The notes beneath the pieces were generated by a model. That model was not told the origin of the DNA and did not search any database. It worked only from the letters and a program-made list of their open reading frames with translations. Shown here piece after piece: positions 33,564-39,479 of a stretch of 64,000 bases of DNA. How positions within the stretch are numbered: position 1 is the first letter of the stretch; every line of letters starts with the position of its first letter. This DNA comes from Fistulifera solaris (taxonomy: Eukaryota): positions 806,001-870,000 of the forward strand of contig AP026131.1 in assembly GCA_030295235.1 (NCBI GenBank), in the 5' to 3' direction. The translations under genes and the position numbers were made by a program.

Positions 33564-33998
33564 TCTCGATTCTGAACAGCAAAAACTAATGAATATTCAA
33601 AGCAACAAGGATATCTCTTTCTCTCCGACTCTGCAATGCAAGCTCGGTCGAGAGGAAGGAGGTCCTCGATCTCGACGGCACTTTTGTCGTTTTGTCTTCT
33701 TTTCTGCTCCGATTCTGTCCACGGTGCCGTTCAGCAAGCTTACTTAGACACACAAGTTCTAATTAAGCGAGAAGCGATAACCGTTGGTAATTTACACTAG
33801 CGTTAAGTGTTAGTTTACGCATCTTCAACGGATACTTTGTAAAGTACAGATAATTTGACTGAAATGAGAGGTACGACATGCAAAGATCTTTGAGATCCAA
33901 TAAGCGCGTGTTTTTCGTCCGCAATAAAATGAATGAAGAAAGCAATTGCTAATATTTCGGCTACAAATTCTTGATTACATCTAAAACACTTCAATAGA

Positions 33999-35292
33999 AT
34001 GACACCAGCAGAAGCAGCCTTAATGGCGGCGAAATTAGCCGCAGAGGAGCAGCCCGATGCGCAACAACAAATCACCACGCAACTCGCTCACGCGGGTGTT
34101 TCGTATCCTTCGTTTACGAACTGTCCCTTATCACCGCCACTGCATTTCGCCACGACTTATACACGTCCCGTGGAAGGTCCGTATCTTCCAACGGATGCGA
34201 TTTATGCGCGTCTGGACAATCCGACGCGTCTCGCACTCGAGACCGAAGTGTTTCAGTTAGAAACAGCTGGCATGACTTTCGCATCATCAGCAGAAGATCC
34301 CCCGCTGCGATCCTTGGCATTTGCTTCGGGAATGATGGCGATTTCTTCCATTATATTGGCGCATCGGAGTCCCTTGGTCGTCATGGTACCGCAGGATACT
34401 TATCACGGCGTACCGACTGTTCTCATGGATGTCTTTTCACGATTTCAGGTCGAACGGCGCAAGGTCGACATGAACGACATTAGTGCATTCAAAAGGCTCT
34501 CCGGGCCGTCGATTCCAGTCATGTGCATCTGATTGTGTGGATGGAAACACCATCGAATCCGCAATGTCATGTCTTGGATATCGCCAAGCTCAGTCAATTG
34601 GCGCATCAGTATCACAATACGAACGTCACGTGTGTCGTCGATAGTACACTGCATCCCTTACAACAACCACTGCAATACCGAGACGTGGATATTTGTGTGC
34701 AGGCAGCGACCAAGTATATGGCGGGACATTCCGATGCCTTACTGGGAGTGGTGACCACCTTGCGTCCGGATTTTTTTCAGAAACTGCATCAAGTACAAGA
34801 CTCGGTCGGGGGAGTCGCTGCTCCGATGGATTGTTGGTTGACCCTGCGGGGATTGCGCACTTTGGTGTTGCGGTTCCAACAACAGTCCGACAGTGCCTTG
34901 CAACTGGCGCAGTTTTTCAAAATCAAATCATTCAAAAGAGCTGCGCGTCTTTACAGAAAGTATACTATCCCGGGCTGCCCAGCCATCCCCAACACGCCCT
35001 AGCGGTGACACAAATGAAGACGCGTGGTGGTTATGGAGGTGTCTTGTCGGTCGAATTTAATTCGGAAGCATTTGCCATGGCGTGGATCGCCGCCTTGCAG
35101 GTAGCGTACCCTGCCACCAGTTTGGGAGGAACGGAAACCTTGGTCGAGCATCGGGCGAGCATCGAACCGCCGTGCCGTGTGGTGAGTCCGATCGGACTCG
35201 TCCGTATCTCGGTGGGATTGGAAAATGTGCAGGATTTGCTCAAGGATTTCGCCAAAGCACTCCGGATTGCCACTCAAGTCTTGTCGGCGTAG
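33999..35292 (+). CDS. Cys/Met metabolism PLP enzyme (cystathionine gamma-synthase/lyase family)
   Basis: YARLDNPTR, FASGM.AI, WMETPSNP, VVDST, ATKYMAGHSD, LRGLRTL, TSLGGTETL, RISVGLE; frameshifts near 34495 and 34918. Confidence 0.93.
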
Positions 35293-35561: not shown

Positions 35562-36989
35562 TCATCCCTTCTTTGAACGGAATTTACTCAGAAATCCTTT
35601 ACGCCTATCCATGGCTTCTTGTTGACCATCTTCCCACAGATGTGTGGGTGGAGGTCTAGGGTAAGCGGAACTGTCATCGTTCGATGTATCGGTTGACAAA
35701 GCGACTCGTTGACTTTGTTCGTCATACGAATAGGACTGATTCTCGCTGGCCAACGAAACCTCTTGACTCATCGTTTGCGCGATATCCGGACTCGCCCATC
35801 CACGACGGCTGCTTTTCGAAGCATTGTCGTCACTGCTTTGCAACATTTTGTTTTTGCGCGAAGCTCGACGGCGGCTCTTGAGGCGCTGGAGATATCCTGG
35901 AGGCATGGAACCACCGCGACCCGGACTCAACAATAAGAAGACAGCACCCGCTAAAAAGGCCACGGAAAGGAGCAAGAACGTCGCCGCGCGTGCCTTCGTT
36001 TCTTGATCCTGCACACTCAAGTTACTGCTGGTAACGCGGTCGATCGCTTGCTGGTACTTGCGTTGCTTGCCATAGGGGTCGGGGCAGTCGGCTTGCTGAT
36101 ACCAGCACGAGTACGAGTTCTGCAGCAAGGACAAGGGAGATCCGTTGTTGCCATTGTTGTTATTTTGTTGCTGCTGTCCCTCTTGCTGCTGATTGTACGA
36201 ATCGCCCCTCGCGTAGATTTGCACACATTTGGCCTTACTTGACAGCAAGTCATTGAATTCACTTAAATCGTCGACGACTTCCTCGATGGTACCGGAACAC
36301 GAGGATCCCGAGATTTGGGCTTTGACAAAACGCTTGTTTTGGCAGATCGCCGCCACGCTAGACTGATCAGCATTGTATTCGTAGTAGTACTTCTGATTCT
36401 CTCCTTGTTGCTGACCTTCATTCAAAAAGCGATGTTGTTGCTGTCCTCCTTGACCTTGACAACTACTCGTCACCACTTGACTATTGCCATTGTTGTTGTT
36501 ATTATTATTGCCTTGATGTTCTCCTTCCCCTCCGTTTTGTACTGCCGTGAAACCATCCACTCCCAAATTCGCCAATACATTGGTAAATCCCGTAATTCCG
36601 TTACTCGTATGCGCCGAAAGAATGTAAGTGGCTTTGGAACACCCCCGATCGCGACGTCCTTTCAAAACGCCGTGCAACGTGTACGCGACTTGTGCGCCCA
36701 TCCGCGGCACACTTTTCAAATACCATGTATCGGATTCATCCCCACCGCCGTTGTTGTTTTGCCCCAGCACCTCCGACCACGCGCATTCATGATATTGAAC
36801 GTACAGTTTCTCGAATTGATCCAGGTCTTCCAAGACATTGCTGGGTTCTTTCCAGTAGAGGGCATTGTGAGCGGTGTTGGGGTTGACGACGCCTTCGGCG
36901 TAGTATGTGTCATCCCGATTCGCGGCCGTTTGCCATATTCCGGACACAGTCAGGAGAAGTATTAATTGTGTAGTTGTAAAGCGGAACAT
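35562..36989 (-). CDS. Diatom-type N/Q- and Cys-rich single-pass membrane protein (silicanin-like architecture)
   Basis: Signal peptide, N/Q runs, RFL motif, multiple Cys, one TM helix, basic/Ser-rich tail. Confidence 0.8.
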   Translation of the reverse strand: MFRFTTTQLILLLTVSGIWQTAANRDDTYYAEGVVNPNTAHNALYWKEPSNVLEDLDQFEKLYVQYHECAWSEVLGQNNNGGGDESDTWYLKSVPRMGAQVAYTLHGVLKGRRDRGCSKATYILSAHTSNGITGFTNVLANLGVDGFTAVQNGGEGEHQGNNNNNNNGNSQVVTSSCQGQGGQQQHRFLNEGQQQGENQKYYYEYNADQSSVAAICQNKRFVKAQISGSSCSGTIEEVVDDLSEFNDLLSSKAKCVQIYARGDSYNQQQEGQQQQNNNNGNNGSPLSLLQNSYSCWYQQADCPDPYGKQRKYQQAIDRVTSSNLSVQDQETKARAATFLLLSVAFLAGAVFLLLSPGRGGSMPPGYLQRLKSRRRASRKNKMLQSSDDNASKSSRRGWASPDIAQTMSQEVSLASENQSYSYDEQSQRVALSTDTSNDDSSAYPRPPPTHLWEDGQQEAMDRRKGFLSKFRSKKG

Positions 36990-37229
36990 GGTGATTTGAT
37001 TTGCTCCAGATCGTATTAAAATGGAGGTGATGCGACAATAAGCTTTGTGCTTTGTGTGTTGTGTGATGATCGGACGAGAATGAAGTACAGATTGTTTTTA
37101 CACTCGTATACACTCTTTCCAAAAGTGTTGTCCAAATTCTTCGCTGATAGACGTTACTCTACTCTCCCAACCACTCTCATAGTCTAACGCCTATTGGAGT
37201 ATGCGTCACTTAGAGCTGGTTGACGTTTC

Positions 37230-37318
37230 AACGGAGTTTTGTCGAGTGTAACGGCTAAGTAGCACAACGGTTCATTTTGATGCTTAGAGAATTTTTCCCG
37301 TTGAACGGATTTGAACGG
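37230..37318. promoter_or_regulatory. Cluster of six AACGG (MSA/Myb-type) cores in a bidirectional promoter
   Basis: AACGG at 37230, 37250, 37266, 37304, 37314 and reverse (CCGTT) at 37298. Confidence 0.65.
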
Positions 37319-37478
37319 CAGCTACAATAAAGTAGCGGACTCCTTTCCTCCTCCCTCGCGTTATTATCCGCACTGTGTTGCAACAACAAAATAAAAATGG
37401 TTGTTGGCATCACACGTTAAGCACAATAGAACCCTTACATTTCCCAACAAAACAAATTCTTACTCTTCATATTCAAAA

Positions 37479-38958
37479 ATGACATTTGATTCAATGAAAG
37501 CCGTCTTATTCACATGGCTGCTTTCGTTATTCACGGGGATCACCGCCACGGAAGACTTTGCCCGTCTGTTGAACGACGCCTCATCCCAAGTGAACTCGTT
37601 CTTTGTCGACTCACGGAATACCTACTACGATGGCTATCAACAAGCGTGGCGTTATCTGGGATTCTACGTGGACTGTTATACGAAAGAAGGAACCAAAGTG
37701 TGTCAGCGATATCTGCTATGGGCCGCGGTACGTAGTAAATTAAGATTGGCTTTCGTTTTTTCTTTCAACAATACTCTCACCCACTCCCCTACCAACTTGT
37801 ATCGCTACACAGTACGTCGATTTAGATTATGAAGGCGGCGGTATCGGTGAATATCAGTACTACAACGTCAATAGCAATACATGGGACGACTCGGCTTGTG
37901 AGCTTCGTCACAACAATGAGAAACGTTGCGCCAAAATGGATTGCCATCTACCCGATACGACCCACTGGAAATTGATGGGATACTTTCGCAACTACGATTA
38001 TTATGATTTTTTTGAACAACTCTTCAAGCATGAAGGATACTGTATCTGGAACGATGGAGATTTGACCGACTTTATGTACGGCAACTACAATTCTTGGCCA
38101 CAGGGATGCACGGCCACCAATGCGTATTCCGAGTTGGATGAAACGCAATTGCTGTATTATGACATCAAGCCCACGGCCGATGCCAACATGACGCTTGGCT
38201 TGTATACGGATGCGGCGTGTTCCGTCGAGTACATGGGAAATCAAACCGTCGATGATCTTTTGCAACAACAGCAACAACATCAAGGTGGTCACCGTGAACT
38301 CCGTGGTGGGCTGTTGTTGGGCGAGTATCTTCAAAAGTGGAACGACGCGTTGAGTGTCTACAAAGTGTGCCAGCCGTGTCGTGCGTACAACTTGTACGCC
38401 GATGGGCGACGACAACGTGAACTCAATAACAATAACAACGCCAATGATGGCTACTTTGAATGCAATGACATTGCAGGATACACAGGTGCGTATTACCCAC
38501 AGATAATTGTGCGTTTTGAGCGGAATCTGATAACGAGTTAACTCACTTTTCCTCTTTCTTCAGATGTCAATCAATGCATGAAATTCCGAACCAAAACCAA
38601 CATGGCATATGCCCCGCTTTATGAAGTGCACAAGGCGACACAACAGGGTGGACTGCTTTCCACCGCATTGGACGGCCAAACAGTCTTGGGACATCCAGTG
38701 AGTAGCACGGCGGAGGCTCACAAGCAAATGAACCGATACGCCGAAGACGAAATGTTCTTGAAAGTATCTCGATGGATGCTAATTTTGTCGGTGATCTGCT
38801 TATTTAGCGTTTGGGCGTGGCGCATGTGGCGCAACTCGGTTCAACGCAACGCCCAGAAAAATTTACGACAACCTTTGGTCGACGCGGACGCTTCCATCGT
38901 AACGCCACCACGTGTGACTCGGACACCTTCCAGCAGCAAGCAAATGTATTCCGTTTAA
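37479..38958 (+). CDS. Diatom-type Tyr/Cys/N/Q-rich single-pass membrane protein with RXL motifs (silicanin-like architecture)
   Basis: Signal peptide, RLL, two REL motifs next to Q/N runs, many Cys, C-terminal TM and short tail. Introns 37728-37812 and 38486-38563 join the three ORFs. Confidence 0.85.
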
Positions 38959-39058
38959 AAGAGAACGAAAAAGCGAATATTTACTCGCTATATGAAGTGT
39001 CGTTCTCTTTTGAAAATAAAAAATAGATCAATATTTTTATTCATGTTAGCTCGGCCTC

Positions 39059-39479
39059 TTATTCTTTACATTCCGTCACTTTGACGTATTTATCATTCAC
39101 TAGCTGATAAAATTGCTTACATCGCACAAATTGCCCTCTATCGATGTTGCCATATGCATCTACACCGCCTTTCCGCTTCGTATTGGCAGTTGATAGACCC
39201 GCTCGCTCACAGGCTTGGCCGCGTTGCGGTGATGGTTGTCCAAATTTGCACAGAGCCTCGTCGGCGGTCATTTCTTTCTTGTCGGTCGTGGTCGACAGTT
39301 CTTTCTCGGCGAAGGCATCCATATCCAGAAGAGCTTGAGTGGGTTGCGGCATTATCAATCCGGTCAACATGCCCGTGCTTGCTGTCGTCGAAAGGAGCCA
39401 TTGTCGTCGACTTTGCATCCAAGCGTCAGCATGAAGCAGTACACAATAAAAAAGAGAGCGAGAGGAAGAGACGCGCCAT
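39059..39479 (-). CDS. Small putative thylakoid-lumen protein
   Basis: Signal peptide ending ADA-W, twin-arginine SRR, hydrophobic stretch, TQA cleavage site, mature part with 4 Cys; ATG 39479 requires a frameshift in a T-run. Confidence 0.6.

Follow-up and report, generated by a model that had tools for sequence, protein, structure and literature searches.

A conserved head-to-head pair of cysteine-rich membrane-protein families in diatoms and its possible connection to the silica cell wall

Why should two genes whose products have no detectable similarity, each apparently encoding a cysteine-rich protein with a single membrane span, stand head to head around one short intergenic region? The question is raised by a 64-kb stretch of nuclear DNA from the pennate diatom Fistulifera solaris (contig AP026131.1, positions 806,001 to 870,000; this whole stretch is called the window here, and coordinates count from its first letter), where gene A (35562..36989, minus strand) and gene B (37479..38958, plus strand) are divergently transcribed with 489 bp between their start codons. 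A sequence-only reading of the locus had placed the two genes about 490 bp apart, which is correct, made no mention of the two introns of gene B, and proposed a silicanin-like complex in the membrane of the silica deposition vesicle (SDV). To judge from the comparisons set out below, A and B are one conserved diatom genetic unit, divergently transcribed, inherited together and duplicated together. Their products probably work together, and they perhaps have a role in the silica cell wall.

The unit was traced in metagenomes, where a profile scan with family B returned 80 loci that were then searched with 25 family A proteins. Upstream sequence of 1,500 bp or more is present next to B at 26 of these loci, and every one of the 26 has a family A gene immediately upstream of B and on the other strand. 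The remaining 54 loci have no upstream room for A and contain it nowhere else; in none of these 54 does A lie downstream of B, and several of them reach 2-10 kb in that direction. Collapsed at 95% nucleotide identity or more, the 26 paired loci represent 16 lineages. With A and B masked, the flanks of 15 loci were compared (tblastx, 1e-8) with one another and with 24 kb of the window; another gene was common to the flanks in 1 of 120 pairs, and the two loci of that pair (L035 and L041) are sisters in both the A and the B tree. Because the flanks share almost no other gene, the linkage of A and B is specific and does not reflect general collinearity; the adjacency is far beyond chance. Conserved head-to-head synteny, the check that the sequence-only reading had suggested for its own proposal, is thus borne out at every informative locus.

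The histories of the two families match as well. Trees of A and of B, each built from one locus for every one of the 16 lineages together with F. solaris, have 9 of 14 splits in common, a number reached by none of 10,000 label permutations, whose maximum is 3. Patristic distances in the two trees agree with a Mantel r of 0.94, which none of 5,000 permutations reaches. The B trees contain about four deep groups (clades I, II and III and the L030/L062 rows), and, among the matches listed, paralogues of B from one species fall in different clades: at least three in Seminavis robusta, at least two in Nitzschia inconspicua and at least two in "Psemu1." Every B clade is paired with its own A clade. 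Since deep clades are paralogous within single species and each has an A clade of its own, the pair was duplicated as a unit. Clade I loci are nearest to proteins of centric diatoms (L080 is 57% identical to a protein of Thalassiosira exigua and L074 45% identical to one of Odontella), and the head-to-head layout has presumably been retained since early in diatom history.

Both genes belong to large families. In a set of 1.84 billion cluster representatives, 340 belong to family A at E ≤ 1e-3, 195 of them also at E ≤ 1e-10; with gene B exon 2 as the query, 205 longer proteins were found for family B at E ≤ 1e-3, the best 120 of which were listed. An alignment of 25 family A sequences (A1) has eight invariant cysteines, a WY pair and the motif CPDP(Y/H)G, which reads CPDPYG in gene A. 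The corresponding alignment of 26 family B sequences (A2) has 11 invariant cysteines, a twelfth in nearly all rows, and invariant blocks such as FEQLFKHEG and NVNQCMKF. Cysteine counts run from 8 to 12 in family A and from 11 to 14 in family B, with 18 in no member. Short C-terminal motifs are the only conserved cytosolic elements in the two alignments. The nearest Atlas clusters of both proteins are assigned to Bacillariophyta, and all 16 of the family B rows that name an organism, among the matches listed, come from diatoms, centric and pennate. A profile search of family A for names and taxa gave 9 proteins only, with low-complexity words dominating. The window itself contains no further A or B paralogue.

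Neither gene matches a Pfam family above threshold, sequence searches of the PDB with both profiles return only low-complexity noise, and Foldseek finds no match in the PDB at E ≤ 0.001 for either model. A wide VIA search with the B model, which barely probed the ectodomain fold, yielded nothing beyond long-helix matches, with Z no higher than 5.9, to the transmembrane (TM) and stalk helix. The two proteins are no closer to each other: in line with the sequence-only reading, which saw no obvious similarity between them, A and B show a best BLASTP E value of 0.25 and hhalign probabilities of 3% (25 and 26 sequences) and 1.4% (128 and 114 sequences). By these measures, A and B are two large Pfam-less families whose homology to each other is undetectable. 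The weak hhalign alignments between them are collinear around DxFExL...CxW...LY...C, and they are non-significant and partly conflicting. In addition, the third-nearest Atlas cluster of A (419 amino acids, 73 members, score 0.86) is apparently the nearest cluster of B, which is likewise not significant. The two families may descend from one ancient inverted duplication, a history to which these non-significant leads would point. The robust new fact is a diatom-wide, co-duplicating divergent pair drawn from two unrelated families of predicted cysteine-rich membrane proteins.

Gene A (P0001) is a single intronless open reading frame (ORF) of 475 codons for a putative type I membrane protein. It is 96% identical to its homeologue FisN_16Lh256 in the other subgenome of F. 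solaris, which we take to be an allodiploid. One source labels the cluster of P0003, the gene A homeologue, "Peptidase M14 carboxypeptidase A"; the label looks wrong because Pfam shows no peptidase domain in gene A. Gene B has three exons and encodes 438 amino acids from its first ATG. Exon 1 (37479..37727) covers residues 1-83, with the hydrophobic N-terminus, an RLL tripeptide and YQQAWRYLG, where the conserved domain begins; exon 2 (37813..38485), which is identical (100%) to FisN_16Hh255, carries the core of the cysteine-rich ectodomain; and exon 3 (38564..38958) carries the block DVNQCMKF, the stalk, the TM helix and a basic tail of 45 residues. Intron 1 (37728..37812) has 85 nt and intron 2 (38486..38563, phase 1) has 78 nt, both with GT..AG ends, and all of these features are on the plus strand. 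The introns were set by eye at frame-restoring GT..AG sites. The spliced product equals the deposited 433-residue protein P0009 except in the choice of the first ATG, P0009 beginning at the second ATG (37494).

In three of four public runs (X2, X3 and X4, all of one study), contigs lack precisely the 85 bases of intron 1 and the 78 bases of intron 2 of gene B, gaps bounded by GT..AG, and contigs from the same runs span the coding sequence of gene A with no joints. A spliced gene B transcript therefore exists, which confirms the gene B model; none of the public runs is recorded as RNA. No X2-X4 contig covers approximately 37042-37392 between the two genes. The contigs end near 37033-37041 and start near 37393-37405, and contigs of this kind cannot show transcript ends. 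Some run contigs match the window at 95-99% and carry clustered single-base differences from it at 37694, 37836-37878 and 38598-38616, which probably mark the copy in the other subgenome. One X1 contig skips 94 bases in the region 38965-39060, just past the gene B stop codon. This skip is not a canonical intron because its ends are CG..CT; it may reflect unequal lengths of the copies in the two subgenomes.

The 489 bp between the start codons (36990..37478) would presumably serve as a bidirectional promoter. In their middle lies a cluster of six AACGG/CCGTT pentamers within 92 bp (37229..37320), which resembles a Myb core; AACGG is the Myb core of plant mitosis-specific elements, a role that the pentamers may have here. 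The cluster is the sole place in the window with more than three copies per 100 bp. The only other place with three lies near 33727, ~270 bp upstream of the ORF of a Cys/Met-metabolism enzyme described below. Over 17 intergenic regions of the pair, the pentamer occurs 39 times, compared with 20.3 ± 4.5 in dinucleotide shuffles. An unbiased k-mer search of the same 17 regions gave top 6-8-mers no higher than those of shuffles, and literature searches linking AACGG and Myb in diatoms found nothing relevant.

The two predicted proteins have the common architecture that the sequence-only reading described, namely a hydrophobic N-terminus, a cysteine-rich ectodomain with Asn/Gln runs, one TM helix and a basic tail. 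The type I layout is assigned in both from the hydrophobic N-terminus and a single TM hydropathy peak. In gene A, all of whose features are on the minus strand, the hydrophobic core of a presumed signal peptide (36933..36977) occupies residues 5-19 and would be followed by cleavage; in each of the 25 aligned relatives the N-terminus is likewise hydrophobic, and A-x-KD comes next. The ectodomain of A has eight cysteines and the runs N7 and QQQQNNNN. There is no RXL tripeptide near its N-terminus; its RFL (36423..36431, residues 187-189) is mid-domain, in the central low-complexity linker, and an RxL is aligned there in many relatives. The TM helix (35928..35984, residues 336-354, hydropathy peak 2.56) is modeled as one long helix. 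It is followed by a mostly disordered cytosolic tail of 121 residues that ends in the basic amphipathic motif GFLSKFRSKKG (35565..35597). In gene B (438-residue model), the hydrophobic N-terminus lies at residues 8-21 and RLL at 29-31. The ectodomain has 12 cysteines, the runs Q5 and N5, and REL tripeptides at residues 244-246 and 285-287, the second of them within RRQREL (38407..38424). The TM helix (38773..38820) spans residues 378-393, and the tail includes RQPLV (38866..38880). Asn and Gln make up 17.7% of A and 13.2% of B, Ser 10.7% and 5.3%, and neither ectodomain has a serine run.

AlphaFold2 models of both whole proteins were built with family alignments. That of A has a mean predicted local distance difference test (pLDDT) score of 65, with blocks above 90 in a confident mixed alpha/beta core and values below 50 in the tail. 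That of B has a mean of 73, with values of ~90 at residues 50-230 of P0009, again in a mixed alpha/beta core. The low-complexity loops and the tails are disordered in both models.

The RXL tripeptides named in the sequence-only reading (RFL in A; RLL, REL and REL in B) were all located. A single RXL in one protein is not above chance. Across the families, the tripeptide is enriched at fixed positions. It is present in 68 of 94 family B pro-regions (19.7 expected from shuffles), where F. solaris has its RLL. Of 113 family B loops between CQPC and FxCxD, before the stalk, 48 contain it (9.1 expected), and the second F. solaris REL occupies this site. A dibasic pair followed by Leu occurs in 39 of the same 113 loops, where 2.8 are expected, and RRQREL stands at this family-conserved dibasic site. 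In family A, 57 of 134 mid-regions contain RXL (22.3 expected). The tails differ between the families. Those of family B carry (E/Q/K)P(L/F)x close to the C-terminus, most commonly as EPLV (31), with a median of 4.5 residues after the motif. The family A tail is long, with a median of 195 residues after CPDP, and 20 of 138 sequences have a basic amphipathic motif in their last 25 residues (2.4 expected).

What would hold two such genes together? Our overall reading, to which we give about an even chance, is that A and B form a heteromeric complex of the secretory pathway whose site of action, as a best guess, is the SDV or the nascent wall. For that site taken by itself the balance is again close to even, and it is suggested by the diatom origin of all named relatives, by the RXL pattern and by a layout like that of Sin1 (formerly SiMat7) of Thalassiosira pseudonana, a protein of 426 residues with an RXL domain, 18 conserved cysteines, the motif GGQKFAL before its TM helix and a tail of 20 residues (Kotzsch 2017, PMC5525289). 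In the proposed sequence of events, the short shared promoter would drive both genes and so yield matched, stoichiometric amounts of the two products. A and B would enter the endoplasmic reticulum, fold with disulfides and pair through their ectodomains as heteromeric subunits. B would be a biosilica-type precursor, trimmed at RXL sites at the end of the pro-region and in the dibasic loop before the stalk. A would contribute an eight-cysteine ectodomain and a long disordered cytosolic tail, the evident handle for any cytosolic partners. RXL cleavage might also release the ectodomains, as has been reported for Sin1 and for the silicalemma-associated proteins (SAPs). Signal-peptide cleavage, RXL cleavage, membrane topology and promoter sharing are all predictions here.

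A fuller version of this scheme can be drawn, which we consider doubtful as a whole. The pair would be an obligate heterodimeric SDV receptor that originated before centric and pennate diatoms separated and was copied as pairs; A tails would recruit dAnk-type patterning factors or the cytoskeleton, ectodomains released at RXL sites would enter the silica, and different pairs would serve different parts of the wall. Transmembrane proteins that relay information from the cytoplasm to the SDV are considered necessary for silica patterning in diatoms; few are known, and the cytosolic dAnk proteins, for which receptors are postulated, are described as having unidentified partners (PMC9894196). A complex prediction with the ectodomains (A 25-332 and B 36-362) scored 0.00, a run in which the tool left the alignments unused, and it is neither support for contact nor counter-evidence.

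Several observations weigh against a silica-associated heteromer. First, the Asn/Gln runs that suggested silicanin to the sequence-only reading are not conserved; at the same sites in A1 and A2, the variable loops of the relatives are rich in Asp, Glu, Asn and Gly, and Asn/Gln-richness is, on this comparison, a peculiarity of Fistulifera or its lineage. Second, GGQKFAL and its 4-5-residue sub-motifs are found in none of 276 A- and B-family proteins, and none of these has 18 cysteines. "Silicanin-like" holds for the architecture and fails for the sequence hallmarks of Sin1. Third, RXL is absent from 26 of 94 family B pro-regions and from 77 of 134 family A mid-regions. Fourth, the AACGG enrichment is modest beyond F. 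solaris and was spotted post hoc. Fifth, the trees were made by a "quick" method from pseudo-proteins assembled out of tblastn matches and omit 10 near-duplicate loci, and the taxonomy of the metagenome loci follows solely from 34-69% identity to named diatom proteins. Finally, contact between A and B, a location in the SDV, and expression linked to silicon or the cell cycle are predictions of the heteromer reading.

Among the alternatives, the one that survives best, and that we rate as a serious possibility somewhat short of even, is that A, B or both are subfamilies of the SiMat7-like (silicanin) superfamily, so that only their pairing would be new. A SiMat7-like protein has, by definition, a signal peptide, an RXL, one TM helix and, in its lumenal domain, eight conserved cysteines (Brembu 2017, PMC5501833), to which a short cytosolic domain has been added (Heintze 2022, PMC9894196). 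T. pseudonana has 15 such genes and P. tricornutum 10, and four subfamilies are distinguished (PMC5501833, PMC9894196). Compared with these descriptions, A, with exactly eight invariant cysteines, would fit the Cys/TM definition literally, with a semi-conserved RXL in mid-domain, and B would nearly fit it, with 12 cysteines, an RXL that comes right behind the signal peptide, and a short tail (45 residues in F. solaris). The tail of F. solaris A is 121 residues long. BLASTp with Sin1 at E < 1e-5 is reported to find 4-13 homologues per diatom genome (PMC10328945), and family B itself falls into about four deep groups. Set against this are the 276 members that lack GGQKFAL, its sub-motifs and 18 cysteines, and the long tail of A. 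In addition, A and B cannot both sit in one alignable family because they cannot be aligned with each other. The sequence-only reading, in calling the families distinct from Sin1, was right that they are not Sin1 orthologues; the wording is perhaps too strong, given how well the SiMat7-like definition fits A and nearly fits B.

The possibility that A and B are regulated together but that their products make no contact seems to us unlikely. The shared promoter would then be kept because both proteins are required simultaneously, as at cell division, although they act separately or in sequence. The divergent layout and co-diversification demand co-regulation or common inheritance and not contact, congruence of the trees follows from shared history alone, and the six-copy AACGG cluster fits a regulatory reason for the linkage. 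But the linkage has persisted through two or more duplications and across the depth of diatom divergence, with all flanking synteny lost in the meantime, and the complementary tails, one long and one minimal, together with the parallel ectodomains would suit subunits better.

We judge it equally improbable that the pair is a heteromeric complex of the diatom surface or endomembranes unrelated to silica, serving adhesion, mucilage anchoring, sensing, gamete recognition or sorting. In its favor, receptors and adhesins in general typically have cysteine-rich ectodomains of type I, none of the evidence gathered is specific to silica, and neither protein has a Pfam family or a known fold. However, the architecture resembles that of SDV proteins, the named B relatives, among the matches listed, are all diatoms, and RXL is enriched at fixed sites, a kind of site described, in the accessible text, as so far limited to biosilica-associated proteins (PMC5647440). 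The idea that A and B are chance neighbors or an annotation artifact has in its favor only the prior that genes lying side by side are mostly unrelated; it retains next to no probability, being refuted by the pairing at 26 of 26 loci, the congruent trees, the unconserved flanks, the spliced gene B and the size of the families.

The genes next to the pair belong to the surroundings that are not shared. On the far side of gene A, three consecutive ORF pieces on the plus strand (33999-34532, 34541-35002 and 35014-35292) match Pfam Cys_Met_Meta_PP at profile positions 2-135, 143-267 and 294-380. The pieces at 33999-35292 are one Cys/Met-metabolism gene for a pyridoxal phosphate enzyme, split by short introns or frame changes. 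This gene is convergent with gene A, with 270 bp between the 3′ ends. Just downstream of gene B, an ORF of 119 residues on the minus strand (39059-39418) has no Pfam match and is not conserved beside the pair in other loci.

Head-to-head retention through all of the lineages and duplications examined, with surrounding synteny lost, is among the strongest purely genomic signs of functional coupling. It makes A and B a concrete candidate for a two-protein complex. Their adjacency supplies a natural pairing rule for an analysis of A-B ectodomain co-evolution, and the compact, presumably bidirectional promoter may serve for balanced two-gene expression in diatoms. Were the pair unrelated to silica, it would still be a diatom-wide two-component system of the surface or endomembranes.

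How do A and B compare with systems already described? The closest in layout is Sin1. Both A and B are predicted to share with it the type I topology, the signal peptide, a folded cysteine-rich lumenal domain, one TM helix and conservation across diatoms; B alone shares an RXL-ended pro-region and a short cytosolic tail, and the F. solaris copies alone share Asn/Gln clusters. They differ in that Sin1 has 18 cysteines and GGQKFAL, whereas A has 8 cysteines and B 12, neither has the motif, and the tail of A is long. Orthologues of Sin1 have been delimited by E < 1e-50 to the T. pseudonana protein (PMC5525289). For the members that we retrieved, Sin1 orthology is rejected because 18 cysteines and GGQKFAL are both missing. 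GGQKFAL and two 6-residue sub-motifs are also absent from six-frame translations of the 80 loci and the window, and when viral contigs were scanned with back-translated GGQKFAL, the 30 loci obtained were all chance matches, none with a TM helix after or a cysteine-rich ORF before the motif. The accessible part of PMC5525289 contains no description of Sin1 as one half of a divergent gene pair.

The SiMat7-like set, nine members of which are reported from the valve-SDV proteome (PMC9894196), differs from A and B in that these are two mutually unalignable families in obligate head-to-head pairing. The terms "gene pair," "adjacent" and "promoter" are all absent from the main text of PMC5501833, and literature searches for a diatom SDV gene pair, a bidirectional promoter or these locus tags found nothing relevant. 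SAP1-3 are type I SDV membrane proteins with an N-terminal RXL, whose lumenal and cytosolic parts are separated proteolytically and for which cytosolic coupling has been proposed (Tesson 2017, PMC5647440). The SAPs are serine-rich and have no cysteine domain, "cysteine" occurring 0 times in the accessible text of PMC5647440. Their description also includes a conserved cytoplasmic domain next to the TM helix, whereas A1 and A2 have only the short C-terminal motifs on that side. A and B resemble them as putative type I membrane proteins with RXL; membership in the SAP family is rejected because the ectodomains of A and B are cysteine-rich and folded and have no serine run.

For the arrangement of the genes, the nearest parallel lies outside biosilica. 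The genes for histones H2A and H2B, and for H3 and H4, stand head to head as partner subunits around a short shared promoter and have been kept so through duplications. A and B differ from the histone pairs in being predicted lumenal or surface membrane proteins, whose binding to each other is proposed here.

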